From NCBI GenBank assembly GCA_017380635.1, contig JAFODP010000015.1, forward strand, positions 80,771-144,770: a DNA stretch of 64,000 bases, read 5' to 3'. Source of the stretch: Bacteroidales bacterium (GTDB taxonomy: Bacteria > Bacteroidota > Bacteroidia > Bacteroidales > UBA1402). Made by a program: the position numbers and the translations under genes. Shown one piece after another: positions 1 through 35,434 of the stretch (position 1 is its first letter; each line of letters begins with the position of its first letter). The notes beneath the pieces were generated by a model. That model saw only the letters and a program-made list of their open reading frames with translations. It was not told the origin of the DNA and did not search any database.

Positions 1-1
1 T

Positions 2-661
2 ATCGCCAACGCAATGTACAATTCATTGCAGAACTCAGCTCAGCTTACCCACCACTTGGGCGCCGATGCCCGTCGTTTGCAGGCATTGCGCAAGAAAGCC
101 AAGAAGGCTTACGAAGAAGGCCGCATCAAGGCCAACGTTACCATCAACGATTTGGTTTGCTTTGCCGTAGTGAAGGCTTTGCAGAAATTCCCCAATGTCA
201 ACTCACACTGCTTGGGCGACGCTATGCGTCTGTTTGAAAAAGTTCACCTCGGTCTGGCTGTCGATACCGAACGCGGCTTGATGGTGCCCGCCGTAAAGAA
301 TGCCGACGATTTGTCTATCATCGGTTTGAGCAACCAACTCAAGAAAGTGGCCGAAGATTGCAAGAAGGGTTGCATCAATCCCGACTTGTTGTCGTCGCAG
401 GCTGCTTCATTCACCGTAAGCAACTTGGGCAACTACGGCGTAGAAGTGTTTACTCCTATCATCAACGTGCCTCAGAGCGCTATCTTGGGTGTGAACACCA
501 TCGTGCCTCGTCCCAAGGATCTGGGCGGCGGTGTATATGGTTTCGTTCCTTACATCGGCTTGAGCCTTACCTATGACCATCGTGCTTTGGACGGCGGTGA
601 AGCGACTCGTTTCTTGAAACAAATCGCTATCGAAATCGAAAACTTGGATATTGAATTTTAA
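2..661 (+). CDS. Dihydrolipoamide acyltransferase (E2) of a 2-oxoacid/acetoin dehydrogenase complex, C-terminal catalytic domain (5'-truncated by the window edge)
   Basis: Motifs GLMVP, FTVSNLG, PIINVPQSAILG and the catalytic LSLTYDHRALDG. The frame is open from the window edge. Confidence 0.93.
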   Translation: MANAMYNSLQNSAQLTHHLGADARRLQALRKKAKKAYEEGRIKANVTINDLVCFAVVKALQKFPNVNSHCLGDAMRLFEKVHLGLAVDTERGLMVPAVKNADDLSIIGLSNQLKKVAEDCKKGCINPDLLSSQAASFTVSNLGNYGVEVFTPIINVPQSAILGVNTIVPRPKDLGGGVYGFVPYIGLSLTYDHRALDGGEATRFLKQIAIEIENLDIEF

Positions 662-672
662 AACATAGAACG

Positions 673-2031
673 ATGTTTGATGTAGCAATCATTGGTGGCG
701 GCCCTGGTGGATATGTGGCAGCCGAAAGAGCAGGCGCAGCCGGTTTGTCTGTGGTGCTTTTCGAAAAAAGAGAATTGGGTGGCGTTTGTCTGAATGAAGG
801 TTGTATCCCAACCAAAACCCTTTTGTACAGCGCTAAAGTATATAATTACGCTTTGCACGGCGAACAATACGGTGTCAGCGTGGAAAATCCCGTTTTCGAC
901 TATGGCAAGATTGTCGATCGCAAAGATAAAGTGGTGAAGAAATTGGTGGGCGGCGTAAAAGCTGCCATGAAGGCTTACAAGGTGAAAGTGGTGGCTGCTC
1001 CTGCTACCATCGAAGGCCGCAGTGCCGAAGGTATCAGCTTGAGCGCCAATGGCGAAACTTATGTGGCCAAGAACTTGCTCATTTGCTCGGGTTCCGAAGC
1101 TTTCGTTCCCCCGATTCCAGGATTGCAGGAAGCCGGCGATGTTATCGTTACCAACCGCGAAATCCTTTCTTTGCGTGAACAACCCAAGGAATTGGTGGTG
1201 ATCGGTGGTGGCGTTATCGGTATGGAATTCGCTTCTTTCTTCAACAATTTGGGCACCAAAGTAACCGTTATCGAAATGTTGCCCGAAATCTTGGGTGGCT
1301 TGGACGGCGAAATTTCTGCCATGTTGCGTGCCATGTATGCCAAGAAAGGCATTGCTTTCAACTTGCGTTGCAAAGTGGTGGGCATCGAAGGTAATACCGT
1401 GGTGTACGAAGATCCCGAAGGCAAGACCCAGCGCGTGAGCGGCGACAAGATTTTGGTGTCTGTGGGCCGTCGTGCCAACATCAAAGGTTTGGGCTTGGAA
1501 AATATCGGTGTGGAAGCTGAACGCGGCATCAAGGTGGACGACTGTATGCGCACCAATGTTCCCAATGTCTACGCTGCCGGCGACGTTACCGGTTTCTCTT
1601 TGTTGGCTCACACGGCTTCTCGCGAAGGTGAAGTGGCTATCAACAATATTTTGGGCAAGAACGACCGCATGCGTTACGATGCTATTCCCGGCGTGGTGTA
1701 CACCAATCCTGAAGTGGCCGGCGTAGGTCTGACCGAAGAACAAGCTAAGGCTAAGAATATCGATTTCACCGTTTTGAAATTGCCTATGGCTTACTCTGGT
1801 CGTTTCGTGGCCGAAAACGAAGGCGGCGAAGGTATCTGCAAAATCATCGTTGGTAAGAAATATCACGAAGTGTTGGGTGTTCACATGTTGGGTAATCCTT
1901 GTAGCGAAATCATCCAAAGCGCGTGCATCGCCATCGAACAGGAAATGACCGTGGAACAACTCAAAGAAGTGGTATTCCCGCATCCTACCGTAGGTGAAAT
2001 TATCAAGGAAACAGCTTTCAGCATGCATTGA
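673..2031 (+). CDS. lpdA: Dihydrolipoyl dehydrogenase (E3)
   Basis: FAD-binding GGGPGG, redox disulfide GGVCLNEGCIP, NAD-binding GGGVIG and C-terminal HPTVGE. Confidence 0.96.
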   Translation: MFDVAIIGGGPGGYVAAERAGAAGLSVVLFEKRELGGVCLNEGCIPTKTLLYSAKVYNYALHGEQYGVSVENPVFDYGKIVDRKDKVVKKLVGGVKAAMKAYKVKVVAAPATIEGRSAEGISLSANGETYVAKNLLICSGSEAFVPPIPGLQEAGDVIVTNREILSLREQPKELVVIGGGVIGMEFASFFNNLGTKVTVIEMLPEILGGLDGEISAMLRAMYAKKGIAFNLRCKVVGIEGNTVVYEDPEGKTQRVSGDKILVSVGRRANIKGLGLENIGVEAERGIKVDDCMRTNVPNVYAAGDVTGFSLLAHTASREGEVAINNILGKNDRMRYDAIPGVVYTNPEVAGVGLTEEQAKAKNIDFTVLKLPMAYSGRFVAENEGGEGICKIIVGKKYHEVLGVHMLGNPCSEIIQSACIAIEQEMTVEQLKEVVFPHPTVGEIIKETAFSMH

Positions 2032-2082
2032 GATGCACTGACAAAAAATATGGACGAAATAATCATTTAAAATTATAGCATT

Positions 2083-4560
2083 ATGCCAAAATCAATTTTT
2101 ATCGATCCCAAAGAGGTTCGCAAAGCTGGCGAGATTAAAATCGCTCCTATTCCTGTGATGCAGTACAACAAGAGCATCAAGGACGAAATGAAAGAAGGCA
2201 ACTTCACCAAAGAAGATTTGTTGCGCATCTATCGCGATATGTTCTATATCCGCGAATTTGAAACCATGCTCAACTTGGTGAAAACCACCGGTGCTTACAA
2301 TGGTGTGGCTTACAACAACCCTGGTCCTGCTCACCTTTCTGCCGGTCAGGAAGCTGCTGCTGTAGGTATGGCTTACAACCTCGATACCGACGACTTTATT
2401 TTCGGTTCACACCGTAGCCATGGCGAAATCTTGGCCAAAGGTTTGCGTTCTATCCAATTGCTCAGCGACGAAGATTTGACCAAGGTGATGGAAGAATTCT
2501 GGGGTGGTGCTACTTTGAACGTGGCCAAGAAAGGTTACGAAGGTAACAATACCAAAGAATTGGGTATCCGTTTCTTGCTTTACGGAGCTATCGCTGAAAT
2601 CTTTGCTCGCGAAACCGGTTTCAACAAAGGTTTGGGTGGTTCTATGCACACTTTCTTCACTCCTTTCGGTATCTATCCCAACAACGCTATCGTAGGTGGT
2701 TCGGGTAGTATTTCTGTAGGTGCTGCTTTGTACAAGAAAGTAAACCGCAAGAAAGGTATCGTAGTATGTAACATCGGTGACGGTTCTTTGGCTCGCGGTC
2801 CGGTGTTGGAAGGTATGACTTTTGCTTCTATGGACCAGTTCCACACCATGTGGGAAGGCGATATGAAGGGTGGTCTGCCCGTATTGTTCAACGTAATGGA
2901 CAACCAATATGCCATGGGTGGTCAGACTCGTGGTGAAACCATGGGTTACGATATGGCTGCTCGTTTGGGTGCCGGTTTCAACGTAGACGCTATGCACGCT
3001 GAACGCGTTGACGGTTACGATCCTTTGGCAGTTATCGATGCTTTCCGTCGCAAGAAAGCTTTGTTGCTCGACAAGAAAGGTCCCGCTTTGCTCGACGTGG
3101 TTACTTATCGTTATTCAGGTCACTCTCCTTCAGACCAATCATCTTATCGTACCAAGGAAGAAATCGAATTGTGGATGCAGGAAGACTGTATCGTAGCTTA
3201 CGGCGAAAAACTGAAAGAAGCCGGTTTGGCTGTTGATGCCGACTTGGAAGCTATGCAGGCCGAAGTGAAGAACAATATGTTCGAAATGTACAAACTCGCC
3301 ATCGACGACGAATTGTCGCCCCGTATGGATTTGAGCAAGAATACCGAACTCTTGGGCGAAATGATGTTCTCTAACGAAAGTGTAGATGCTATGAACACCG
3401 CTAAGCCCGACGTTTATATGCCTATCGAAGAATGTCCTCGCGTTAAGAAGATTGCCGCTAAGACCCGTTTCTACAAGGATGCCGATGGCAAACCCGTCAG
3501 CAAGATGAAGATGTACAACATCAAGGACGGTATCTTCGAAGCTATGATCGATCGTTTCTACAAAGATGCTTCTTTGGTGGCTTATGGTGAAGAAAACCGT
3601 GAATGGGGTGGTGCTTTCGCTGTATATCAAGGTATGACCGAAACTTTGCCTCCTCATCGTTTGTTCAACTCGCCCATTGCCGAAGCAGCTATCATCGGTA
3701 CCGCTATCGGATATGCTATGTGTGGTGGTCGTGTGGTTCCCGAAATCATGTATTGCGACTTCCTCGGTTGCTGCGGCGACGAAATCTTCAACCAATTGCC
3801 CAAGTGGCAGGCTATGTCGGGTAACATCCTGAAAATGCCTGTAGTGGTTCGCGTTTCTGTAGGTTCTAAATATGGTGCTCAGCACTCACAAGACTGGACC
3901 GGTCTGTGTGCCCACATCCCCGGTTTGAAGGTGGTATTCCCCGTTACTCCTTACGATGCCAAGGGTTTGATGAACGCAGCTTTGCAAGGCACCGACCCCG
4001 TTATCTTCTTCGAAAGTCAACGTATTTACGACAAGGGTGAAGAATTCCATACCGAAGGTGTTCCTGCTGAATATTACGAAATTCCTATCGGTGAACCCGA
4101 TATCAAGCGTGCCGGTAAGGATGTTACTTTCCTCACCATCGGTGCTACTTTGTATCGTGCTTTGGAAGCTGCCGATATGTTGAAAGAAAAATATGGTATG
4201 GAAGCCGAAGTGATCGATGCTCGTTCTATGGTTCCTTTCAACTACGATAAAGTGATTGAATCTGTGAAGAAGACCGGTCGTATCATCATTGCCGGTGACG
4301 CTTCTGCCCGTGGTTCATTCTTGAACGACTTGGCTGCCAACATCACCGACCTTTGCTTCGATTATTTGGATGCAGCTCCCGTGGTACTTGGTTCACGCAA
4401 CTGGATCACGCCTTGTCACGAATTGGAAGAATACTTCTTCCCGCAACCCGCATGGTTCCTGGATGCTATCCACGAAAAGATGATGCCTCTGAAGGACTAT
4501 GTTCCTACTGCAAACCTTACTTGTGCTCAACAAGTTATCCGTGCTAAGAAAGGTATCTAA
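2083..4560 (+). CDS. Fused E1 alpha/beta TPP-dependent 2-oxoacid/acetoin-type dehydrogenase
   Basis: Alpha part has HLSAGQEA, the TPP motif GDG...N and YRYSGHSPSD. Beta part has FNSPIAEAAIIG, GAQHSQ and PGLKVV. 825 aa. Confidence 0.92.
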   Translation: MPKSIFIDPKEVRKAGEIKIAPIPVMQYNKSIKDEMKEGNFTKEDLLRIYRDMFYIREFETMLNLVKTTGAYNGVAYNNPGPAHLSAGQEAAAVGMAYNLDTDDFIFGSHRSHGEILAKGLRSIQLLSDEDLTKVMEEFWGGATLNVAKKGYEGNNTKELGIRFLLYGAIAEIFARETGFNKGLGGSMHTFFTPFGIYPNNAIVGGSGSISVGAALYKKVNRKKGIVVCNIGDGSLARGPVLEGMTFASMDQFHTMWEGDMKGGLPVLFNVMDNQYAMGGQTRGETMGYDMAARLGAGFNVDAMHAERVDGYDPLAVIDAFRRKKALLLDKKGPALLDVVTYRYSGHSPSDQSSYRTKEEIELWMQEDCIVAYGEKLKEAGLAVDADLEAMQAEVKNNMFEMYKLAIDDELSPRMDLSKNTELLGEMMFSNESVDAMNTAKPDVYMPIEECPRVKKIAAKTRFYKDADGKPVSKMKMYNIKDGIFEAMIDRFYKDASLVAYGEENREWGGAFAVYQGMTETLPPHRLFNSPIAEAAIIGTAIGYAMCGGRVVPEIMYCDFLGCCGDEIFNQLPKWQAMSGNILKMPVVVRVSVGSKYGAQHSQDWTGLCAHIPGLKVVFPVTPYDAKGLMNAALQGTDPVIFFESQRIYDKGEEFHTEGVPAEYYEIPIGEPDIKRAGKDVTFLTIGATLYRALEAADMLKEKYGMEAEVIDARSMVPFNYDKVIESVKKTGRIIIAGDASARGSFLNDLAANITDLCFDYLDAAPVVLGSRNWITPCHELEEYFFPQPAWFLDAIHEKMMPLKDYVPTANLTCAQQVIRAKKGI

Positions 4561-4572
4561 TCGTTCTTGACA

Positions 4573-5727
4573 ATGGAAACAGTAAAAGTAAACGCACACT
4601 TGCATACGCCTTATTCGTTTAGCGCTTTTTCAGGAATTGACGAAGCGCTGGACAAGGCGCTTGCCGAAGGTGTAAAGGTAGTGGGAATCAATGATTTCTA
4701 TTCTACCGAAGGTTATGAAGCTTGGAACGAAGGTTGCCGCAAACGTCATTTGTATCCCTTGTTCAATATCGAATTTATTTCTTTGAACGAAGAAGATCAG
4801 AAGGCCGGTTTGCGCGTGAACGACCCCGGTAATCCCGGACGTACTTATCTCAGCGGTAAAGGTTTGACTTGTCCTTTGAGTTTGGGTGAACCCTACGCCA
4901 CTCAGTTGGCCGATGTTCGCGCCGAAGCTAATGCGCAGGTGCAAGCCATGTGTGCCAAACTGAACGAACATTTGGCTGCCAACGAAGCTGGTTTCCAATT
5001 GGATTATCAGTGGATTTGTGATACGCTCACCAAGGGAAGCATCCGCGAACGTCATTTGGCCAAAGCGCTCAGAATGAAGGTATACGAAAACACAGCCAAT
5101 GCCGAAGAAGCCAAGGCTTTGTTGGAAAAACTTTTTGGTGGCAAGGCTTTGAAGTCTGCTATCGAAAACGAAGCGGCTGTTGAAAATGAGATTCGTGGTA
5201 ATTTGCTCAAGGCCGGCGGCGCTGCTTTCGTGCCCGAAGATCCTAAGGCTTTCTTGCCCATGAAGACCGTTTGCGATATCATTTTGGCTGCCGGCGGTAT
5301 TCCCACATATCCTTTCCTGGCCGACGATGCCAAAGGTGGCTACACCGATTTCGAAGGCGATTTGGAAAAAGTGGCCAAGGTTTTGCGCGAACGTGGCTTC
5401 TATTCAGTGGAATTCATCACCACCCGCAACGATGTTCAATTGCTCGAAAAATATGCTTCATATCTGCACGAACAAGGCTTCGTGGTAACTTTGGGTAGCG
5501 AACATAATACCCCTGCCATGGAACCTGTTGAACTCTTTGCCCGCGGTGGCGCTCCTCTGAGCGAACGTCTGTTGCAAATCAACTACGAAGGCGCTTGCGT
5601 GGTGGCTGCTCATCAGCATTTGGTAAAACAAGGCTTGCAAGGTTATGTGGATGCCAATGGAGTGGCTGCTGTAGATAAACGTGACGAATATATTGCACTT
5701 GGTGCACAATTAATTGCTAGTGTATGA
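4573..5727 (+). CDS. PHP-fold metal-dependent hydrolase of unknown function
   Basis: N-terminal HLHTPYS, GINDF, IEF and C-terminal GSEHN, typical of PHP metal ligands. The ATG at 4573 is preferred over the TTG at 4567. Confidence 0.8.
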   Translation: METVKVNAHLHTPYSFSAFSGIDEALDKALAEGVKVVGINDFYSTEGYEAWNEGCRKRHLYPLFNIEFISLNEEDQKAGLRVNDPGNPGRTYLSGKGLTCPLSLGEPYATQLADVRAEANAQVQAMCAKLNEHLAANEAGFQLDYQWICDTLTKGSIRERHLAKALRMKVYENTANAEEAKALLEKLFGGKALKSAIENEAAVENEIRGNLLKAGGAAFVPEDPKAFLPMKTVCDIILAAGGIPTYPFLADDAKGGYTDFEGDLEKVAKVLRERGFYSVEFITTRNDVQLLEKYASYLHEQGFVVTLGSEHNTPAMEPVELFARGGAPLSERLLQINYEGACVVAAHQHLVKQGLQGYVDANGVAAVDKRDEYIALGAQLIASV

Positions 5728-7733
5728 ACGGAGTACAAGATTTGATTAATATTTCTCAGTATTATGGGAAAGATAGCCGCTTTGTGATTGCAGGTGGCGG
5801 TAATACCTCATATAAAACAGCCGACAGACTTTGGGTGAAAGCTTCAGGTTCTGCTTTGGCCACCATCACCGAAGATGGTTTTGCCGTGCTCGATCGTCAG
5901 AAATTGCAGGTGTTGTCGGAAAGACAATACAGCGAAAATACGGCCGAACGCGAAGAACAGGTAAAGAACGATTTGGCTGCTGCTTGCATTTCGCAAGGCA
6001 AGCGTCCGTCGGTGGAAACTTCGATGCACAATGTTATCAACTATGCTTTCGTGGTGCATTTGCATCCCACGGCTGTGAATGGACTTATGTGTGCACAAAA
6101 TGCTGAAAGCGATTTGAAGCAACTCTTCGGCGAAAAGGCTTTGTATATTCCTTACACCGATCCCGGTTATGTCTTATTTAAAAAGGTAGAAGATTCTATC
6201 AAGGCTCATCGTGCTGCTTTTGGTGAAGAACCTTCTGTTATCTGGTTGCAGAATCATGGTATTTTTGTGGCTGCCGATAGCATCGAAGAAATTAAGACGC
6301 AATACGATGCTATTTTGGCCAAGTTGGAAGTGAAGCCGCTCCTTATCGAAGATCGCGACACTTGCTCTTGCACGGAACAGGTTTTGCCCGCTTTGCGTAT
6401 GATGTTGTGTCAGGAAGCTATTCAATTGGCCGGACAAACTTGCAGCGGTATCCGCAATCCTTATGCCGGTGCCAATCTGAAAGTGTTGAAAGTGCGCAAG
6501 AATTCTTTGGTGAAATCGTTCTACGACAGCGCTGAGGCTTACGCAAAAATCAGTCGTCCTTTCACGCCCGACGGCATTGTTTATTGCAAATCGAACTACA
6601 TTTATATCGATGCCGAAGAAAGCCAGGACAAGATTGCTCAGGCTCAGGAAGCTATTCCCGCTTTTGTGAAGAAATTTGGTTATCTGCCCAAGGTGATTCT
6701 TATCAAAGGTATTGGTTTGGTGGCTGTTGGCGATAATGCTGCTCAGTGCGACATCATCCTCGATGTATACGAAGATGCTATGAAGATTGCTGCTTTGGCC
6801 GAAAACTTTGGCGGTGCTCATCCTATGACTCAGGCTCAAATCGATTTCATCGACAACTGGGAAGTGGAAAATTATCGTCGTAGTGTGGCTGCCGGTGGCG
6901 CTTCTGGTCGTGCCGAAAACAAAACCATCGTGGTGACCGGTGCTGCTCAAGGCTTTGGCGAAGGTATTGCTCGTTGTCTTTTGCTCGAAGGTGCTAACAT
7001 CGTGGTGGCCGACCTTAACGAAGAAGTGGGACAAGCTACCGTGGTTCGTTTCAACGCTATGGTCAAGAGCAATCGTGCTATTTTCGTCAAGACCAATGTT
7101 TCTGATATTCCTAGCATTGAAAATCTTGTACATCAGACTATTTGCAATTTTGGTGCTATCGATGCTTTCATCAGCAATGCCGGCGTTTTGCGTGCCGGTG
7201 GTCTCGAAGATATGACGCCTGAAAACTTCGAATTCGTTACCAAAATCAACTACAATGCTTATTTCTATTGCGCTAAGGTGGTGAGCCGCGTGATGAAATT
7301 GCAGACCAAATATTCTGGCGAAGATTATTATGCCGACATCATCCAAGTGAACTCTAAATCTGGTTTGCGTGGTAGTAAGGCTAACTTTGCTTACGCCGGC
7401 GGTAAATTCGGCGGTATCGGTCTGACGCAGTCGTTTGCTTTGGAATTGGCTCCTTTCCGCGTGAAAGTGAACAGCATCTGCCCCGGTAACTTCTACGATG
7501 GACCGCTCTGGAGTAATCCTGAAAACGGTCTCTTCGTTCAGTATTTAAAGGCTGGTAAAGTGCCCGGTGCCAAGACCGTAGAAGATGTAAAAGAATTTTA
7601 TTTGGCTCAAGTGCCCATGCGTAAAGGCTGCTCTCCCGAAGATGTTTGCAAAGGTGCGCTCTATTTGATGGAGCAGCTCGGCGAGACTGGACAGGCTTTG
7701 CCTATCACTGGCGGCCAAGTCATGCTTAATTAA
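5724..7733 (+). CDS. Bifunctional class II aldolase/adducin-like domain fused to an SDR dehydrogenase (SrlD-like)
   Basis: N-terminus has GGGNTS, PSVETSMH, VHLHP and NHG. C-terminus has TGAAQGFG, NAG, NSKSG and YAGGK. Overlaps the PHP stop codon (ATGA), suggesting translational coupling. Confidence 0.88.
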   Translation: MNGVQDLINISQYYGKDSRFVIAGGGNTSYKTADRLWVKASGSALATITEDGFAVLDRQKLQVLSERQYSENTAEREEQVKNDLAAACISQGKRPSVETSMHNVINYAFVVHLHPTAVNGLMCAQNAESDLKQLFGEKALYIPYTDPGYVLFKKVEDSIKAHRAAFGEEPSVIWLQNHGIFVAADSIEEIKTQYDAILAKLEVKPLLIEDRDTCSCTEQVLPALRMMLCQEAIQLAGQTCSGIRNPYAGANLKVLKVRKNSLVKSFYDSAEAYAKISRPFTPDGIVYCKSNYIYIDAEESQDKIAQAQEAIPAFVKKFGYLPKVILIKGIGLVAVGDNAAQCDIILDVYEDAMKIAALAENFGGAHPMTQAQIDFIDNWEVENYRRSVAAGGASGRAENKTIVVTGAAQGFGEGIARCLLLEGANIVVADLNEEVGQATVVRFNAMVKSNRAIFVKTNVSDIPSIENLVHQTICNFGAIDAFISNAGVLRAGGLEDMTPENFEFVTKINYNAYFYCAKVVSRVMKLQTKYSGEDYYADIIQVNSKSGLRGSKANFAYAGGKFGGIGLTQSFALELAPFRVKVNSICPGNFYDGPLWSNPENGLFVQYLKAGKVPGAKTVEDVKEFYLAQVPMRKGCSPEDVCKGALYLMEQLGETGQALPITGGQVMLN

Positions 7734-7855
7734 GGTTGTGTCGCGGGGAATATGCGGCGCCCGCTTCGGCTCAAAGCTCGGTCATTTACGAGAGTAAACT
7801 CCCTTCGCTTTTCGCCTTGTAGCCACCACATATTCCCCGCGCTCCGACCTTAATT
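7728..7855. repeat. ERIC-like hairpin element, copy 1 (128 bp)
   Basis: 27-bp imperfect terminal inverted repeats (aattaaggttgtgtcgcggggaatatg / catattccccgcgctccgaccttaatt) around the core ggtcatttac-gaga-gtaaactccc. Confidence 0.75.
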
Positions 7856-7858
7856 TTT

Positions 7859-7978
7859 AAGATTGTAGAAGACCACTGCTGCGGCGCCCGCTTCGGCTCG
7901 ATCCTCGTTCACGTACTTGAAGTACGCTCCCGTCGTCCTCGCCTCGCGGCCACCATATCATGGGCCTTCTCCAATCTT
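7859..7978. repeat. ERIC-like hairpin element, copy 2 (120 bp)
   Basis: Terminal inverted repeats aagattgtagaagacc / ggccttctccaatctt. Shares gcggcgcccgcttcggctc with copy 1. Core is gttcacgtac-ttgaa-gtacgctccc. Confidence 0.72.
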
Positions 7979-8001
7979 GATTATTTCAAGGATTTCAACC
8001 T

Positions 8002-8328
8002 ATGAGTATTACTGAGAGAATAGTTTGTTTCTTGGCCGTGTGTCCTTGGGCCTTGATTTGGTTTTTGCTGGCTCGCTATCTGCGCCGCCATTCGCAACAA
8101 TCCGCCCAATACCTTATTATTTCGAGGGCTAAACTTGAAAATCTCGACGTTAAGAAAGTTGCCCGCTTTGTGTCTTCGGCTATGTTGGTCGGCTTGCCCT
8201 TTATTCTTCTAGCACCTTGGGCTTCAAGCACAAAGCTTTATTATCCGCTTCAGTTTGGGCTGCCGATTCTTTTCGTAATTATAGCCATTCTTTTTGTGTT
8301 TGTCTTCGACAAGCCCTTTCATAAGTGA
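8002..8328 (+). CDS. Small membrane protein with 3 hydrophobic segments (possibly DUF3784-like)
   Basis: 108-aa ORF with three hydrophobic stretches. The family guess is weak. Confidence 0.6.
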   Translation: MSITERIVCFLAVCPWALIWFLLARYLRRHSQQSAQYLIISRAKLENLDVKKVARFVSSAMLVGLPFILLAPWASSTKLYYPLQFGLPILFVIIAILFVFVFDKPFHK

Positions 8329-8497
8329 GACTTATTTGCGAGTCCGCTGCTCTCTGCGATGGAAATCATTCTGATATTGATGTAATTGTTCAACGCTCGG
8401 TAGAATCTGCGTTGCGGTATCTTCCAATAAATGCTATCTTTGCAGGCTTTTAATGGTTTGCAAGCCGGAACTTTCTGTTGTCAGAATATCTATCAAT

Positions 8498-9898
8498 ATG
8501 AAAATGTGTATCAAAATAAATGGATTTATTGCATTGATTTTCTTGCTGTTTTGCTTGGTGTCATGCGGTGATGATGAAAATAATCGTCGTATTATCAATG
8601 TGCGTATCTCGGAAATTTCGAAAGTGGAGGTGGATAATGTCAAAGCTTTCGCCTCGCTTGGAAAGACTGCAGCCACAAGTAAAGCCGACAACTTCGCAGC
8701 AAATGCTAATGCGGTGACGCGTGCGAGCGGTGATAATATTCTGTATGTCGTGCACGAGAATAACGACATCGACTTTCCTGATATGCAGTTGGAATATCAA
8801 TTTGGAGATGACCTTAGCGACGAAGAAAAAGCCATGCTTTTAGAAGAACTGCAACCTCGTGTTAAGGTATTGTCTATGAGCGATATAGGACGATATGCGC
8901 TTATCGAGGCTACTGCCTATTTTGAACATCAATTACAGGATAGTATTCCTCAGATGTCTAAAATTAGGTATATGGTGGTGCGAAAATCGGATGGAGAAAC
9001 GCTTGCTATCGAGGATAGAGATGGCTACATCCTGAAAGATATTTTTGCAAGAGGCCGAGGCATGCTACGCTATCATATTGATTCAAAGGGAAATGATCGT
9101 TTTGTTTTTGGTAAAGATGATAGTAAACTTTTTGTCACCATCAGCGAAAAGAATGGCCGTTTGCAGCTGCAACAAGAAGAACTTTCAGGCCCCTCATATC
9201 CAAATATAGTAGTAGATGAGTTTGGCTATTTGTATCGTTACAATGAATATATCCTGACGATGAATGGCGCGCAACTTAAATTAGACGGAAACTGTTTAGC
9301 TTTATCGCAAGTGGAAAATAAAGCCTACGCATTTACCTACGATTATGGCGAGCCTTTGCGCGTTTATGAACTCTCTAATGGAGCTAAGTTATTGAATGAA
9401 TACTCTGTAGGCGATGAACATCGCGTGAAGCTTTGGGGCGAACATGCCAGGGATGCCGGTTTCGTCGATGGCGAAATTTTTTTGGTGGCCAACGGCCTTT
9501 TTGTGCGTTATCACATAGCAAACAACACGTTCCAGCTGCAAGAATTTAGTGAAGAATTGAAGCAGGAAATTCAACATAGTGAATGGTATGCAGATTATAA
9601 GCTTTACCAAGGTGGTCTGTATAAAGTTGTCAATCAGGGGACTTATGCGCAAGTGTTGAAAACAAATTTGATTACCATGCAGCAAGAGGAAATCAAGTTG
9701 GCACTTCCCGAAGGTGCTCAGATGACTTCTCATATATTTAAACAATCGTGTTTGGAAAACAATCGTTTAGATCTTAAAGTGTATTACAATTTGGGTACAT
9801 CTCATTCTCAAGCTATCTATTACAATCTGTATGGCGCCGAAGGCGATGTTATCGATTTTGGCGATTATGAAGTCGATGCAGTGCTGCTGTTGAAATAA
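8498..9898 (+). CDS. Hypothetical lipoprotein
   Basis: Lipobox LVSC followed by GDD. Promoter box TATCTTTG at ~8435 favours the ATG at 8498 over 8453. Confidence 0.75.
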   Translation: MKMCIKINGFIALIFLLFCLVSCGDDENNRRIINVRISEISKVEVDNVKAFASLGKTAATSKADNFAANANAVTRASGDNILYVVHENNDIDFPDMQLEYQFGDDLSDEEKAMLLEELQPRVKVLSMSDIGRYALIEATAYFEHQLQDSIPQMSKIRYMVVRKSDGETLAIEDRDGYILKDIFARGRGMLRYHIDSKGNDRFVFGKDDSKLFVTISEKNGRLQLQQEELSGPSYPNIVVDEFGYLYRYNEYILTMNGAQLKLDGNCLALSQVENKAYAFTYDYGEPLRVYELSNGAKLLNEYSVGDEHRVKLWGEHARDAGFVDGEIFLVANGLFVRYHIANNTFQLQEFSEELKQEIQHSEWYADYKLYQGGLYKVVNQGTYAQVLKTNLITMQQEEIKLALPEGAQMTSHIFKQSCLENNRLDLKVYYNLGTSHSQAIYYNLYGAEGDVIDFGDYEVDAVLLLK

Positions 9899-27479: not shown

Positions 27480-30400
27480 ATGAACAAGAAAACCATTTTA
27501 TGTCTGCTTCTCATGTCTATAGGTATGTGTGCATGGGCAGCCGGCGTGAACGACATTCCGACCACTGCTAGCAATCCTTTTGATATGACAAAAGGTGAAT
27601 TGCATGGTTCTCGCGCTAGTTTTGGTAGCGATCATCACATCGATTGGATGTACAACGGCGACTATGCTGTGTACGAACTGAACAACACCATCGATGCCAA
27701 GTATTACGACATCAGTTTTGGCGTGGGCACTACACAACCTTCGGTGAGCATCACCTTTGCTTTGAAGGATGCATTGGGCAAGGAAGTGTGGAAGGGTACT
27801 TCTGAGATTGCCAACAATAACAATTGGAATGAATATGTTCCCTATTCGTTGCGTACCGGCGAACTGCCACAAGGGAAATACTCGCTCAACATTACTTTCA
27901 ACAGTGTGGGCGGTAATGGTACTACGGGAAATCTGAATCATATCGCTTTCACAGCCAAGGAAAAATTTGTCCCTGTAACGGTGGATAAACAGCCGGCCAC
28001 TGCTACTTTTGCTTTCGGCAGCGGTGAAGAAGGACAAGTGGCCACCTTGGGTCAGGCTGCTCAATATTTCAAGGCGACTTACGTGGAAGCCGGTGAAAAC
28101 TTGAATTGGGCCGGTCCGAAATCGGCCGGCGGTGTGGCTCAGACCGGTTTTCAGCCAACGCTCAATAACGAAGGCAGCGCCAACGACGGTAACCGCATCG
28201 ACTTTATGATTAATCCGCTGAACGGCTTGAGTTTCACACCTACCAAGATATCTTTCCAAACCACGCGTCACGGAACGGATGGCGGCAAGGTGGATGTTTC
28301 CTGGATTAATGCCAGCGGCAGTGTCGTTGATTTGCAAAAAGGTATTTCTCCTGCCCGTAACAATGCTTCTCCTGCCGTCAGCGATGTACTTTGTGAAGTG
28401 CCCAATGCCGAAGCAAGTTTTGGCCCCTGTGGTTTGCGTCTACATCTATATGGCTTGGGCAATACCAAAGTGGTGAGCTTTGCCAATATCGTTATTGAAG
28501 GGGTGGTGAACGGAACTTCCGAAGATGTGCCTCAATATAAATTGGTGGTCAATGTTGACGCCGCTGCTGCCGAATGTAAGATTTCTCCCGCTACCGATGA
28601 ATATTCCGAAGGTGACGAAATCAGCATTACCTTGAAAGAAAATTTTGGTTATCATTTCAAGGAATGGCAAGATGCTGCAGGCAAGATGGTTTCTACCGAA
28701 AATCCTTATACCTTTATTATTAAGGCCGATACGGAATTGAAAGCTGTTTTCGATAAGAAGGAAGTGTATGCGCTCAACCTGAAAATGATTGACGACCTCG
28801 ACAATGTGTATACTAACGCCAATATGGTAAGCGTATCGCCCGAAGGAAATGTGATAAACGGTGTGCATCATTACGAAGAAGGTACCGATGTCAAGCTCTT
28901 GGCCAACAATAACAAGATTCTGAGTTTTACTTCTTGGGAAGATGCTTCCACCAATGCAGAGCGCATTATTCGCATGGACGAAACTAAATCTGTGACTGCC
29001 AATTTCGCCGTGGCCGATTACATCGTAGCTTGGGACTTTTACAAGGATCAGCCCGGACAAGACCGTTCGGCCGATTATTATAGCAATCCTGAAAATCGAG
29101 GTATGTTGAGCCTGCATAATGCGCAAGGCAATAGCAGCGGCTGGTTGTCGCGTGGTGTGGGCAATGGTGCAGAAAACGGACGTTGGGCGGCCAGAATATG
29201 GAAACTTCGTTCGCAAGGATTGTACTTTGAAGCTTCTTTCTCTACGAAGGGATTTAGCAACGTGGTGGTTTACAACGCCTTGGGTGTGAATTATAATACT
29301 TACGCCAAGTTCCGTGCCGAATATTCGGTGGATGGACAGAACTACAACGCCTTGGGTACGGTGGATATGCCGAGCAATGGTTGGGTAGATTGTGAATGGC
29401 CTTTGCCTGCCGACGCCAACGAAAAAGACAGGGTTTATATCCGCTGGATGCCTGCTTCCGAAGATTTGGTGGGTAGCGCCACCGATTACGATGGTTTGGC
29501 TATTTCAGGCATTTATGTGATGGCTGAAAGTGCTCAGGCTTCGGACGATGTGGCTCCCGTTTTGATCAGCAGCAATCCGGCTGCTGGCGCCGAAGGCGCC
29601 AGCGCCAACGGTAGCGTGGTGCTTACTTTCGACGAACGCATCAAGGCCGGTCAGGGTCAGGCAACTTTGAATGGCGAAGCGCTTCAGGTTCAGGTGAATG
29701 GCAAGACGGCAGTCTTCCCTTACGCAGCGCTCGATTATGGCAAGGAATACACTTTCCAATTGCCGGCCGGCCTCATTTGCGACCGCAGCGGCAATGCTTT
29801 CGCCGGATTGACGCTCAGCTTCACGACCATGCAACGCTCTCAACCGCAGCCGAAAGTGTTTGATGCTGTGATTGCTGCCGATGGCTCTGGCGATTTTACT
29901 TCGGTGCAATCTGCCATCGATGCTGCGCCCGCAGGTAGAGCAACGCCATGGCTTATCTTCATCAAGAATGGTGAATACAAAGGTCACGTGAACATTCCTG
30001 CCAACAAACCTTATCTTCACTTTATCGGTCAGGAACGCGACAAGGTAATCATCACCGACGACCGTCTTTGCGGCGGCGACAATGCGGTGCATGTCAGTGT
30101 GGGCGCTACCGTTGTGGTGAATGCCAACGACTGTTATTTCGACAACCTGACGCTGGAAAATTCTTGGGGACACGACAAGCAGGCCGGTCCGCAGGCTTTA
30201 GCCCTGAACACCAGTGGCGACCGTACCATCTTCAAAAATGTGGCCATGTTGTCGTATCAAGATACTTGGATTACGCCATCAACTTCCAACTATCGCGTGT
30301 ATGCCAAGGATTGCTTCATCGAAGGCGCTGTGGATTTTATCTACAATAGCGGAAATATTTACATCGACAACACCACCTTGTATATCAACCGTAAGAGTGG

Positions 30401-31187
30401 CGGTTACATTGTGGCACCTTCACATGCTTCCGATGTAAAATGGGGTTATGTCTTTATGAATTGTCGTATCACGGCTCCCGGAAATCCTGCCGAAACAGAT
30501 GTTTGGTTGGGTCGTCCCTGGCATAATAGTCCGAAGACTGTCTTTATCAATACCATTGCCGAAGTGACCATTCCTGCTAAAGGTTGGTATCCTACCATGG
30601 GCGGTCTGCCGGTGCTTTGGGCCGATTATAACACCATGGATGCCAACGGAAATCCTGTGGATTTGAGTCAGCGTGAAGATACCTATTATTATACCAAGGA
30701 CGATGGTAGCAAGGTTTATGGCAAGGCCAAGAATTACCTGACGGCCGAAGAAGCTGCCCAATACACGGTGAAAAATGTGCTGAGTGGTTCCGACAACTGG
30801 CAACCTGCTCTGATGACGGAGTCTTGCGCCAATCCCGAAGTGCGCATCAATGCCGGCCATTTGGAATGGGAAGCTGTGCCATACGCTATCTGTTATCTGG
30901 TGAGCCGCAACGGCGAAGTGCTGGGCTTCACCACAGATTGTAGCTATCCTTACGAAGATGGTTATCAGTATAAAGTGCAGGCAGTCAACGAGTATGGTAG
31001 CTTGTCGGGTGCAGGAAAGCAATCTCAGCCCGATGCTTTGCCTCAGGTGCAAGAAACGCAATCTGCTCAAGTATTGGCCATTTACACTTTGGGTGGCGTA
31101 GAAGTAAAAGAATTGCAAGAAGGTCTTAATATAGTTAAAATGATGGATGCCGACAACAAGATTGTTTATCGCAAAATAATGAAGTAA
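27480..31187 (+). CDS. Multidomain pectin methylesterase (CE8) with a CBM-like N-terminus, B-repeats, an Ig-like domain and a probable T9SS C-terminal domain
   Basis: Signal peptide. CE8 motifs DGSGDFTSVQSAI, QALAL, YQDT, VDFIY and LGRPW. C-terminal IYTLGG...GLNIVK...RKIMK. Confidence 0.88.
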   Translation: MNKKTILCLLLMSIGMCAWAAGVNDIPTTASNPFDMTKGELHGSRASFGSDHHIDWMYNGDYAVYELNNTIDAKYYDISFGVGTTQPSVSITFALKDALGKEVWKGTSEIANNNNWNEYVPYSLRTGELPQGKYSLNITFNSVGGNGTTGNLNHIAFTAKEKFVPVTVDKQPATATFAFGSGEEGQVATLGQAAQYFKATYVEAGENLNWAGPKSAGGVAQTGFQPTLNNEGSANDGNRIDFMINPLNGLSFTPTKISFQTTRHGTDGGKVDVSWINASGSVVDLQKGISPARNNASPAVSDVLCEVPNAEASFGPCGLRLHLYGLGNTKVVSFANIVIEGVVNGTSEDVPQYKLVVNVDAAAAECKISPATDEYSEGDEISITLKENFGYHFKEWQDAAGKMVSTENPYTFIIKADTELKAVFDKKEVYALNLKMIDDLDNVYTNANMVSVSPEGNVINGVHHYEEGTDVKLLANNNKILSFTSWEDASTNAERIIRMDETKSVTANFAVADYIVAWDFYKDQPGQDRSADYYSNPENRGMLSLHNAQGNSSGWLSRGVGNGAENGRWAARIWKLRSQGLYFEASFSTKGFSNVVVYNALGVNYNTYAKFRAEYSVDGQNYNALGTVDMPSNGWVDCEWPLPADANEKDRVYIRWMPASEDLVGSATDYDGLAISGIYVMAESAQASDDVAPVLISSNPAAGAEGASANGSVVLTFDERIKAGQGQATLNGEALQVQVNGKTAVFPYAALDYGKEYTFQLPAGLICDRSGNAFAGLTLSFTTMQRSQPQPKVFDAVIAADGSGDFTSVQSAIDAAPAGRATPWLIFIKNGEYKGHVNIPANKPYLHFIGQERDKVIITDDRLCGGDNAVHVSVGATVVVNANDCYFDNLTLENSWGHDKQAGPQALALNTSGDRTIFKNVAMLSYQDTWITPSTSNYRVYAKDCFIEGAVDFIYNSGNIYIDNTTLYINRKSGGYIVAPSHASDVKWGYVFMNCRITAPGNPAETDVWLGRPWHNSPKTVFINTIAEVTIPAKGWYPTMGGLPVLWADYNTMDANGNPVDLSQREDTYYYTKDDGSKVYGKAKNYLTAEEAAQYTVKNVLSGSDNWQPALMTESCANPEVRINAGHLEWEAVPYAICYLVSRNGEVLGFTTDCSYPYEDGYQYKVQAVNEYGSLSGAGKQSQPDALPQVQETQSAQVLAIYTLGGVEVKELQEGLNIVKMMDADNKIVYRKIMK

Positions 31188-33703: not shown

Positions 33704-35434
33704 TTATTTCACCAGTCGAGATGTGATATGACGACGGAAAATACTATCTTCACCAAAAGCATCAATTTTTTCATTGATTGCTTGAAGACGTTCAATCGGT
33801 GTGAGATTGGGTTGTTCGTCAGTTGTATCTTCTTGCAGAGTCATTGAACCGGATCCCATAACTGGAATATATTCATCCCAATGAACGGGAACATCATAAT
33901 AATTACCATTACTACAATATTTGGACACGTAATCTATGCGAGGCTCTGCACGATAGCCATAGGCACGAACCTTAACTTCGACGCTTCCATCATCCTTACG
34001 CTCTTCTGAGGTTTTAAGGATGCAATGTGTAGCACAGCTTGGATCTGCAAATTTATCCTCACCCCAGAAGTTTGCGAGAGACTCATGTTCCCAATACGTA
34101 CTCTGACGAGGCATATCGGTGCCATAGATGGCGGATACAGGACGGATTTGTTGATACATGGGAATACTGAGCAATGGTGCAAATGCAAAGTAAATAGCTC
34201 TAAAGTTTTCACAAGTTGTTTCAAGGAACACCTGCTTTGCTTTATCGTAATTACTGCTCCAGAACATGCGTGGATTCATGTCAAGCGGAAGGTCTTGCAT
34301 ATGTCCGGCTGTAAGCGTATTCATCTTACGATGTTTCATGAATTGGAAGTTGTCTCCATAACCCAACTCTTTATCACGAATGATTTTAATCATATTTTCT
34401 TGTGCCAAGGGAGTGAATAACAAGAAATATTGTTGGTTATTGTTACGGTTGGTAGTGGTGAACAGAACTTCAAACTCTTCGTTGGTAGCCATTGCAAAGT
34501 CGTTCTTAAGGTCACGAGAAAATTTCTCAATTTCTTTAAGTTTGCGTTTATAGGCACGAGAATCAACTTCTAATTTGTCATCGTTTGTATCTCTGGTAAA
34601 GTTGAGGTCGGGTGCGGCATCGTTACCATAGATTAGGCGAGTCTTTTCGTAGTATTCCGGATAGGGCTTATGAACACTAGCGCGAAGAGTTTCGCTATGA
34701 TTGCGTTCGTGTCTTTTGCCTTCGGAGTCAATCTCAACTGTTTTCCATTTTACAGTTAATTCTCCTTTGTATTCTTTGGTTCCCATTTCCATTTTTCGTG
34801 TACGTGCAATGACAAATGGATTTCCATTGATGAGACCGCTATGAGAGTAAATAACTGAACGTTCTTTGCTGAAATTTTCATCCCATCCGTAACTATTAAC
34901 AAGATCTGCTAAACGCTGGCTGGTAAAATATGGGTCAAATTCGAGACGAGGAACCGTTTGCGTCATCATACGATTGAATACGTCCCAATCGTACAGTCGG
35001 TTAAGAGGAGCCATCATATCCCAAGCTTCCTGTTCCTTGTTCTTGATGAGTGTCTCTTGTTCATTTTTTATCGACTTGTACTTCTTGATGATAGGATGTA
35101 TCTTCCAAAATAATAGTACGAGCATTGATACACATCCAACAATGCACAATGTTGGGATTAACCAGCCATTTTTAAAGCCATCAGCAATGCAAATGATTAC
35201 ACAGACTGCTGCTACAATCCACATAAAAATACATAGCGCGGTCCATAGTTTTAAGGTTTTAGCTGTTTTCTTGTTGTTTGTCTGAATGTCTTGTATTTCT
35301 ACACATAAGGCCCTGTTTTCTTCAGGATTTACACCAGAAGCGGAGGTCAGTTCCTCAAATGTTTTTTCTGCAATTTCGCGAAATTTTTCTTTATATGCCT
35401 GGAATTGTTCCAAGGGACTTAAAATATCTTCCAT
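33704..35434 (-). CDS. Membrane-anchored hypothetical protein (MAG1210-like), partner of LemA
   Basis: Coiled-coil N-terminus, two transmembrane helices and a large soluble domain (SGLINGNPF, EFEVLF...RNNNQQYFLLFTPLAQ). AT-richer codon usage than the flanks. The family name is from recollection. Confidence 0.75.
   Translation of the reverse strand: MEDILSPLEQFQAYKEKFREIAEKTFEELTSASGVNPEENRALCVEIQDIQTNNKKTAKTLKLWTALCIFMWIVAAVCVIICIADGFKNGWLIPTLCIVGCVSMLVLLFWKIHPIIKKYKSIKNEQETLIKNKEQEAWDMMAPLNRLYDWDVFNRMMTQTVPRLEFDPYFTSQRLADLVNSYGWDENFSKERSVIYSHSGLINGNPFVIARTRKMEMGTKEYKGELTVKWKTVEIDSEGKRHERNHSETLRASVHKPYPEYYEKTRLIYGNDAAPDLNFTRDTNDDKLEVDSRAYKRKLKEIEKFSRDLKNDFAMATNEEFEVLFTTTNRNNNQQYFLLFTPLAQENMIKIIRDKELGYGDNFQFMKHRKMNTLTAGHMQDLPLDMNPRMFWSSNYDKAKQVFLETTCENFRAIYFAFAPLLSIPMYQQIRPVSAIYGTDMPRQSTYWEHESLANFWGEDKFADPSCATHCILKTSEERKDDGSVEVKVRAYGYRAEPRIDYVSKYCSNGNYYDVPVHWDEYIPVMGSGSMTLQEDTTDEQPNLTPIERLQAINEKIDAFGEDSIFRRHITSRLVK

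Follow-up and report, generated by a model that had tools for sequence, protein, structure and literature searches.

A conserved gene set of Bacteroidales that joins a lipoamide-dependent dehydrogenase complex to a PHP-fold protein and an aldolase/dehydrogenase fusion, and its possible role in the breakdown of L-rhamnose to acetyl-CoA

The DNA examined was a 64,000-nucleotide stretch (hereafter "the window") from a Bacteroidales bacterium (NCBI GenBank assembly GCA_017380635.1, contig JAFODP010000015.1, positions 80,771 to 144,770; G000:C47:80771-144770 in our numbering). The source assembly comprises 2.34 Mb and is 97% complete. Open reading frames (ORFs) were listed and scanned against Pfam and NCBIfam. 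Five genes on the plus strand, spanning positions 2 to 7733, are the subject of this study. The first base of the window falls inside the gene for E2, a dihydrolipoyl acyltransferase, of which the 3' part (2-661; 2-oxoacid_dh, 197 bits in Pfam) is contained in the window; the whole gene (C47:80070-81431, plus strand, 453 aa) starts 701 bases upstream and encodes Biotin_lipoyl, E3_binding, and 2-oxoacid_dh domains. It is followed by the gene for E3, a dihydrolipoyl dehydrogenase (673-2031, 452 aa; 499.9 bits against TIGR01350, cut-off 408.8), and by that for a fused, thiamine-diphosphate-dependent E1 alpha-beta chain (2083-4560, 825 aa; E1_dh, Transket_pyr, and Transketolase_C). The fourth gene encodes a PHP-fold protein (4567-5727, 386 aa; TTG start; sub-threshold match to Pfam PHP), and the fifth a fusion of a class II aldolase with a short-chain dehydrogenase/reductase (SDR) (5724-7733, 669 aa; Aldolase_II and adh_short). 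The gaps from E2 through E3 and E1 to the PHP gene are 11, 51, and 6 bp, respectively, and the PHP and aldolase/SDR genes overlap by 4 bp. If translation of the PHP protein begins at the ATG at 4573, the gap between it and E1 is 12 bp. A preliminary description of this DNA had reported five tightly spaced co-directional genes; it was right on this point, and our coordinates differ only in the gap between E1 and PHP.

A 15-sequence alignment of the PHP-fold protein was used to scan one genome per species, and 80 loci were found. All of them are labeled Bacteroidales or Bacteroidota; Paludibacter, Proteiniphilum, Alistipes, Tannerella, Rikenellaceae, and Seramator are represented. In 33 of these loci, the PHP gene is flanked on either side by 8 kb or more ("long-flank loci"). 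In this set, the aldolase/SDR gene was present in all 33, E1, E2, and E3 were present in 32 each, and a gene for a reductase resembling SorE was present in 31. Less constant were a tandem class II aldolase (26), RhaB (19), LplA (14), RhaA (13), and RhaT (12). Gene order was the same as in the window at 32 of the 33 long-flank loci, and the arrangement is therefore not a product of chance. When looser flank limits were applied, E1 was found at 57 of 60 loci (all but L071, L076, and L088), and the aldolase/SDR gene at 61 of 62 (all but L066).

Co-occurrence was studied in 251 genomes that were drawn evenly across the order and searched with each part of the module. The PHP gene was present in 36 of them. 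Orthologues of E1 (at least 63% identity) were detected in 37, i.e. in all 36 genomes with the PHP gene and as a 300-residue fragment in one other (G245). An SDR or aldolase/SDR gene was likewise present in all 36, with two additional genomes having the aldolase-like domain only, and the SorE-like reductase was found in 35 of the 36 and in one other genome. The preliminary description had tied its proposal to the joint occurrence of the PHP and SDR genes with the fused E1 in other genomes, and both accompany it in 36 of the 36 sampled genomes that carry the PHP gene. The parts of the module were on separate contigs in about ten of the sampled genomes; therefore, the co-occurrence holds even without adjacency. 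Because the sampled genomes are related, and hence not independent, these counts overstate their statistical weight. A different fused E1 (ca. 690 aa, 25-30% identical) is widespread in the order and occurs in genomes that have the PHP gene as well as in those that lack it. The E1/E2/E3 complex, the PHP-fold protein, the SDR, and the SorE-like reductase are inherited together.

Four partners of the module are scattered in the source genome, and these same genes share the operon of the module in related genomes. The SorE-like zinc dehydrogenase (421 aa) is located at C37:97718-98980. The tandem class II aldolase (432 aa) is found at C50:20599-21894 and is followed by the lipoate-protein ligase LplA (C50:19856-20596). 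The pair RhaB-RhaA (rhamnulokinase and L-rhamnose isomerase) is located at C21:103.6-106.4 kb, with no aldolase adjacent. The five genes that were originally grouped form only a portion of the system; the SorE-like reductase, the tandem aldolase, LplA, and RhaB-RhaA also belong to it. Over 415 residues, the SorE-like reductase is 50.1% identical to the product of Klebsiella sorE (L-sorbose-1-phosphate reductase). The Klebsiella gene used for this comparison lies beside a sorbose-type phosphotransferase system and a SorC-type regulator (all names are those of the record's annotation). In the sorbose pathway, SorE and glucitol-6-phosphate dehydrogenase act together to relocate the carbonyl of a ketose-1-phosphate to the opposite chain end. 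In the source genome, the SorE-like gene ends 19 bp before the genes for pyruvate formate-lyase and its activating enzyme (C37:97718-102000, locus L090); this adjacency may be due to chance, or it may hint at a coupling to formate or pyruvate metabolism.

The association with deoxy-sugar genes was evident in several ways. At least one rhamnose gene was located near the module at 20 of the 33 long-flank loci; in the source genome, the rhamnose genes are not adjacent to it. RhaA was present in 28 of the 36 sampled genomes that have the PHP gene, compared to 32 of the 215 that do not. Of the eight PHP-gene genomes without RhaA, five were examined for L-fucose isomerase: two had a match above the cut-off, two had only weak relatives, and the remaining match, on the contig that carries the module, was cut short where that contig ends (847.8 bits; cut-off, 850). 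In related genomes, the module adjoins genes for rhamnose or fucose isomerases, kinases, and transporters. A generic polyol phosphate, which had been put forward as the substrate, is not borne out by these partners, which are 6-deoxyhexose genes (for rhamnose and, in some genomes, fucose). The earlier suggestion of a pectin-derived substrate makes sense, as pectin contains rhamnose and the partner genes serve L-rhamnose.

Metagenome contigs were also scanned with distant relatives of the PHP protein. This procedure yielded another 80 loci, whose PHP proteins are 31-39% identical and whose G+C contents range from 0.47 to 0.77. Of the 41 loci with at least 2.5 kb of downstream sequence, 33 have an aldolase/SDR gene after the PHP gene. 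Orthologues of E1 (57-60% identity) were found at 17 of the 80 loci and at 10 of the 15 with long flanks. Other neighbors at these loci were DeoR regulators, RhaB, a RhaI-like barrel similar to xylose isomerase, parts of sugar ABC transporters, and a longer zinc dehydrogenase. Thus, the linkage extends to distant lineages, even though some of these loci have no E1 close by.

The sequence motifs of the complex could be read in the translations: E2 contains a lipoyl-lysine motif (ETDKA) and a catalytic motif (DHRALDG), and the GDG...NQY stretch of the thiamine-diphosphate site is present in E1. The scores of E1 were below every NCBIfam cut-off for a pyruvate dehydrogenase (PDH) E1 (203 bits against 394 for TIGR03182, 224 against 321 for NF006667, and 224 against 454 for NF008854); nonetheless, its top NCBIfam matches are the models of the alpha and beta subunits of that enzyme. 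The nearest relatives with solved structures are a Thermus 2-oxoacid dehydrogenase for the beta half and human PDH for the alpha half. Trees were calculated for each half with Bacteroidales paralogues and with plasmid-borne AcoAB, PdhAB, branched-chain 2-oxoacid dehydrogenase (BCKDH), and Clostridioides E1 genes; each class was represented by one or two sequences, which were annotated rather than characterized. The 825-residue E1s and an orthologue from an Agrobacterium plasmid form one clade with an SH-aLRT value of 100 in both halves. Both halves are located outside of a clade made up of the Rhizobium BCKDH-labeled E1 together with the split and 690-residue fused E1s of Bacteroidales. The beta half is sister to the Burkholderia AcoB of an acoXABC-lplA cluster (SH-aLRT 96, on branches flagged as long). 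The alpha half groups with the Aco and PDH references, not with the branched-chain ones, and takes no settled position among them. The separation from branched-chain enzymes anticipated in the preliminary description was obtained, in that the module's E1 forms its own clade outside of the branched-chain-labeled one. In the source assembly, tblastn searches with the five proteins returned no second E1 or E2. The genome does hold pyruvate:ferredoxin oxidoreductase (1929 bits) and pyruvate formate-lyase.

The Agrobacterium orthologue (53.5% identity) was found in a protein search of plasmids and is encoded on pAt15955 of A. tumefaciens. Its neighbors (L092, 480485-510884) are genes for a lone 78-residue lipoyl protein, an alpha/beta hydrolase, lipA, a member of the mannitol-dehydrogenase family, a sugar ABC transporter, and xylulokinase; no PHP gene was present in this cluster. 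It may represent a second, uncharacterized sugar or polyol route that employs this clade of E1.

The match of the PHP-fold protein to Pfam PHP (PF02811) covers only residues 10-77 and has a score of 23.6 bits, below the gathering cut-off of 26.4. A sequence search against solved structures returned only a match at the level of chance. However, the AlphaFold model has a mean pLDDT of 95.6, and the nearest solved structures in a Foldseek search with this model were the PHP phosphoesterases RNase AM, Cv1693, and BAD_1165 (TM scores of 0.66-0.74, normalized on the target). The modeled protein is thus predicted to adopt a PHP barrel fold. Its relatives are numerous (5280 from one search; 524 clusters at 50% identity in a representative library). 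Among 120 relatives listed, with identities of 73%-98%, every name given by the source is "hypothetical protein". Natural fusions occur in two of the 524 clusters: the PHP protein is fused to a mannitol-dehydrogenase-family (Mannitol_dh) domain in one kind and to an Aldolase_II domain in the other. The alignments show conservation of HxH in the first strand, of a Glu following the third, and of GSEH late in the sequence. Judging from the motifs, set against the ligand positions of PHP enzymes, one of the three metal sites seems to be lost (DG is replaced by SA, and TDH by NDF). The phosphatase role that had been proposed for the protein is unsupported.

In the aldolase/SDR fusion, an aldolase-like domain (ca. 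residues 1-200) and a middle region precede an SDR domain resembling SrlD and RhaW (ca. residues 396-669). Alignment with RhaD and FucA-like proteins indicated that the aldolase-like domain retains the GGN, Glu, HxH, and His elements of class II aldolases, and the SDR motifs TGAAQGFG (TGxxxGxG) and YAGGK (YxxxK) are readable. The fusion scored 246.6 bits against the RhaEW model TIGR02632 (cut-off 567.75), and it was also below the cut-offs of nine other models for bifunctional aldolase/SDR proteins. Among solved structures, the SDR part is closest to the sorbitol-6-phosphate dehydrogenase 5o3z (131 bits). In seven sampled genomes, an SDR without an aldolase domain adjoins the PHP gene. One of the module-bearing genomes, G036 (94% complete), contains E2, E3, E1, PHP, SDR, and reductase genes but has no class II aldolase match at all. 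Its variant of the module (L195, on G036:C22) includes a GntR regulator in addition to the SDR that lacks an aldolase domain. Directly after it are genes for a KduI/IolB-family protein and a KduD-like SDR (L195 17150-19044), which constitute another link to the breakdown of pectin or uronates. The tandem aldolase keeps the aldolase motifs in its first half only. It adjoins RhaA in several genomes (e.g. G067, G078, G156, G193, and G236); both genes also occur in three genomes that lack the module, and they are directly adjacent in G001 and G170. Because it is found beside RhaA, including in genomes that lack the module, the tandem aldolase is probably a rhamnulose-1-phosphate aldolase.

We tentatively favor a reading in which the five genes form the center of a conserved system that degrades L-rhamnose (elsewhere, L-fucose) through ketol cleavage to acetyl-CoA. 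RhaA and RhaB would form L-rhamnulose-1-phosphate, whose C2 keto group would be reduced by the SorE-like reductase. The SrlD-like SDR domain would then oxidize C5, leaving the carbonyl beside the methyl group, in the manner of the L-sorbose pathway. The resulting methyl ketol (a 1-deoxy-ketohexose 6-phosphate) would be cleaved by E1 and its thiamine cofactor as acetoin is cleaved by acetoin dehydrogenase. The acetyl group would pass to the lipoyl arm of E2 and on to CoA, E3 would reoxidize the lipoamide with NAD+, and a four-carbon sugar phosphate would be released. On this scheme, the product would more likely be acetyl-CoA, derived from the CH3-CO end, than the glycolyl- or lactyl-CoA named in the preliminary description. 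The PHP-fold protein might act with the SDR on a phosphorylated intermediate or on the four-carbon product, and the aldolase-like domain and the tandem aldolase might form a parallel aldol branch or process the products. A fermenting organism would gain acetyl-CoA, and hence ATP, from the methyl end in place of excreted propanediol. The ketol-cleavage reading finds a use for E1/E2/E3, for LplA, for the kinase, and for both dehydrogenases, but it gives no firm step to the PHP protein or to the aldolase-like domains. It fits with the existing pyruvate:ferredoxin oxidoreductase and pyruvate formate-lyase of the source genome, with the lack of a match above the cut-off for lactaldehyde reductase in that genome, and with the presence of the module in G036 without any class II aldolase match. 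A more specific and rather doubtful version holds that deoxy-sugar phosphates, formed by the two dehydrogenases from L-rhamnulose-1-phosphate or L-fuculose-1-phosphate, are cleaved directly and that the PHP protein is a non-hydrolytic isomerase converting the tetrose 4-phosphate towards erythrose-4-phosphate. Such a route would be independent of aldolase and free of propanediol, would yield one more ATP per sugar, and would be distributed over many phyla from gut, rumen, and sediment.

A number of observations weigh against ketol cleavage. Each of its steps is deduced by analogy, and the PHP protein has no assigned step. By our own stereochemical argument, again by analogy, the tetrose phosphate released would be D-threose-4-phosphate, for which we know of no route. 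The aldolase-like domain keeps all of the catalytic and metal motifs of a functional class II aldolase. The SDR domain is below the cut-off for SrlD (205 against 307 bits) and is only 25% identical to the SDR of the Klebsiella sor operon. The references in the E1 trees are few and annotated only, with the joins flagged as long branches, and no E1 is nearby at 5 of the 15 distant loci with long flanks. If the tandem aldolase, as its probable identity suggests, makes lactaldehyde in the source genome, the module may be the consumer of that compound. Further, RhaEW, which has the same architecture as the fusion, has been characterized as yielding dihydroxyacetone phosphate (DHAP) and lactate (PMC3870299). 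The distribution of canonical RhaD, which was found in 4 of the 28 module-bearing and 25 of the 32 module-less genomes that have RhaA, was initially taken to mean that the module replaces the aldolase. This idea was withdrawn. The tandem aldolase is present in 18 of the 24 RhaD-less genomes and explains the scarcity of RhaD at least equally well; therefore, this contrast is not counted in favor of ketol cleavage.

The principal competing explanation, which we regard as unlikely, is that the aldolase domain or the tandem aldolase splits L-rhamnulose-1-phosphate to DHAP and L-lactaldehyde, the SDR oxidizes the latter to L-lactate in the way of RhaW in RhaEW, a further dehydrogenase forms pyruvate, and E1/E2/E3 is a co-regulated PDH. 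The architecture shared with the characterized RhaEW (PMC3870299) speaks for it, as do the intact aldolase motifs, the PDH models as the best NCBIfam matches of E1, the grouping of the alpha half with PDH- and Aco-labeled sequences and not with branched-chain ones, and the company that the tandem aldolase keeps with RhaA; that some distant loci have the PHP and aldolase/SDR genes without a nearby E1 is also in its favor. Yet E1 falls short of all the PDH cut-offs cited above, and the source genome is already equipped with pyruvate:ferredoxin oxidoreductase and pyruvate formate-lyase. This scheme also provides no role for the SorE-type reductase, despite its presence in 35 of 36 genomes, or for the PHP protein. 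In G036, the module stands without a class II aldolase match, and the Agrobacterium orthologue of E1 is encoded among polyol and sugar genes alongside a split E2 that resembles AcoC. That the complex is a housekeeping pyruvate or branched-chain enzyme that merely adjoins unrelated genes is scarcely credible. Its domain content is indeed that of any E1/E2/E3 complex, but the strict co-occurrence with the PHP protein, the SDR, and the reductase already contradicts this idea, and the widespread E1 of the order is the other, ca. 690-residue fusion, whereas this one is confined to 37 of the 251 genomes. The earlier proposal of a dedicated sugar-catabolic module is supported to this extent.

Acetoin and diacetyl cleavage by AcoAB is also the chemistry of a three-carbon route, and it is counted in favor of that route here. 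In it, L-lactaldehyde released by an aldolase would be converted to methylglyoxal by a dehydrogenase acting on its C2 hydroxyl or to hydroxyacetone by an isomerase, and E1/E2/E3 would form acetyl-CoA along with formate or formaldehyde. The lack of a lactaldehyde reductase match above the cut-off in the source genome, the tandem aldolase in the module's operon at 26 of the 33 long-flank loci, and the position of the SorE-like gene directly before those for pyruvate formate-lyase and its activase agree with this scheme. We nevertheless consider it improbable: its intermediates are toxic, the SorE-like, SrlD-like, and PHP-fused mannitol-dehydrogenase families would not be expected to act on three-carbon aldehydes, the PHP protein is left unexplained, and G036 has no class II aldolase match. 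The scheme of the preliminary description, in which a polyol phosphate is oxidized to a ketose that is split beside C2 in the manner of a transketolase donor, giving glycolyl- or lactyl-CoA plus an aldehyde, with the PHP protein as a phosphatase, appears more improbable still. The mannitol-dehydrogenase-family and xylulokinase genes near the Agrobacterium E1 are compatible with it, and the PHP fold is that of phosphoesterases. The partners, however, are rhamnose and fucose genes rather than polyol genes, both in Bacteroidales and in distant phyla; glycolyl-CoA would have no evident fate in the source genome; and the case for a phosphatase is undercut by the sub-cut-off Pfam match and by the metal-site ligands that, judging from the motifs, seem to be replaced. 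Full-text literature searches turned up no account of the module.

A self-consistent codon adaptation index was computed for 1574 ORFs (median 0.36). The ranks of the module genes were 23 (E1), 137 (E3), 180 (aldolase/SDR), 200 (E2), and 206 (PHP); the EF-G paralogue in the window ranked 57. The codon usage had been described as typical of highly expressed genes. All five genes are within the top 13%, which agrees with that description, but only E1 is within the top 2%. A strain ca. 97% identical to the source was present in four metatranscriptome runs from one study. One RNA-library contig spans window positions 1-5823, and another spans 5795-7938; the contigs of a second run cover 850-2129, 2103-4593, and 4588-7934. 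The module is therefore present in RNA libraries, and its gene junctions are bridged by contigs; neither a single transcript nor an expression level follows from these data. Because the runs exist as contigs only, depth cannot be used to rank the genes.

Other features of the region were recorded. A 456-residue ORF on the minus strand (658-2028) is a shadow frame antisense to the whole of E3. The sequence upstream of the window, which the preliminary description had singled out for inspection, was read, and it contains the remainder of E2 preceded by a pectinesterase gene on the same strand that ends ca. 180 bp before E2. The product of this gene (C47:76586-79891, plus strand; L001 14587-17892) has 1101 residues and includes Listeria-Bacteroides repeats. 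A second large pectinesterase (1235 aa) is encoded at 27480-31187 of the window; these two proteins look secreted and combine the pectinesterase domain with Listeria-Bacteroides or InlB-type repeats and Ig-like domains. The ORFs at 8453-9898, 33704-35434, and 36644-38428 (481, 576, and 594 aa, respectively) had no Pfam match. A scan for terminators downstream of the aldolase/SDR gene found none. Two copies of a G+C-rich element of ca. 80 nt are located past this last gene, at 7735-7850 and about 7880-7960. The first copy has 30 matches genome-wide, often as tandem pairs, and an Rfam scan of window positions 7650-8450, which include both copies, returned no family. The 35-nt core of the element (7775-7809) recurs in short RNA-library contigs that are highly abundant (depths of 300-1200) and whose flanking sequences are unrelated. 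A REP-like element located at transcript ends is one possibility.

Pectin, mucus, and algal polymers are rich in rhamnose and fucose. According to the textbook view, anaerobes excrete the methyl end of these deoxy sugars as 1,2-propanediol, on which other gut microbes feed. The operon described here may burn the methyl end of plant-wall deoxy sugars to acetyl-CoA. If so, the energy yield of its carriers would be changed, and more acetate and less propanediol would be found among their fermentation products. Cross-feeding from these carriers, which include Alistipes, Paludibacter, Proteiniphilum, relatives of Tannerella, and many uncultured gut and rumen lineages, would be altered as a consequence. 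The module would also provide the first sugar-phosphate substrate for a complex of the 2-oxoacid/acetoin-dehydrogenase type, as well as a function for a widespread PHP family that its sources name only as hypothetical.

Comparison with known systems places the module near, but apart from, several of them. Like acetoin dehydrogenase (AcoA/AcoB/AcoC/AcoL), it combines a thiamine-dependent E1 of the heteromeric type with a lipoyl-bearing E2 and an E3, often with a lipoate ligase gene in the cluster, and its proposed reaction would likewise convert a CH3-CO-CHOH- ketol to acetyl-CoA and an aldehyde. Unlike in acetoin dehydrogenase, E1 is a single fused chain of 825 residues in a deep clade of its own, and E2 has a classical catalytic domain. 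Enzymes of sugar phosphates and genes for rhamnose or fucose take the place of acoR and acoX as partners, and the proposed substrate is a phosphorylated deoxy sugar. With PdhABCD (of the heterotetrameric-E1 type), the module has its domains, its E2 motifs, and an E3 above the equivalog cut-off in common; it is set apart by an E1 that fails the PDH cut-offs, branches separately, and is inherited together with genes for sugars.

RhaEW (YuxG of Bacillus subtilis and Caur_2283 of Chloroflexus aurantiacus) is a bifunctional L-rhamnulose-1-phosphate aldolase/L-lactaldehyde dehydrogenase. As in the module's fusion, its class II aldolase domain is followed by an SDR domain, and rhamnose genes occur in the related loci; the module's fusion differs in that it is almost always paired with the PHP-fold gene, the SorE-like reductase, and E1/E2/E3. 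No such partners are mentioned in the consulted part of PMC3870299, and the main text of that article, as distinct from its supplements, does not contain the terms "pyruvate dehydrogenase", "lipoamide", or "dehydrogenase complex". The COG0613-type PHP phosphoesterases (RNase AM/TrpH, the nucleotide bisphosphate phosphatase Cv1693, and BAD_1165) resemble the module's PHP protein in their fold (Foldseek probability 1.00). Their sequences are only 13-15% identical to it, however, and the module's protein features a helical insert of roughly 130 residues and is partnered by sugar enzymes rather than by nucleic-acid enzymes. With the L-sorbose module (SorE and the glucitol-6-phosphate dehydrogenase SorD/SrlD), the present module has in common a reductase 50% identical to a Klebsiella sorE product and an SDR that is SrlD-like. 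It differs in that the ketose would be a 6-deoxy sugar, so that the product would be a methyl ketone rather than fructose-6-phosphate, in that the pair of dehydrogenases is coupled to a lipoamide complex, and in that the reductase gene resides on another contig in the source genome.

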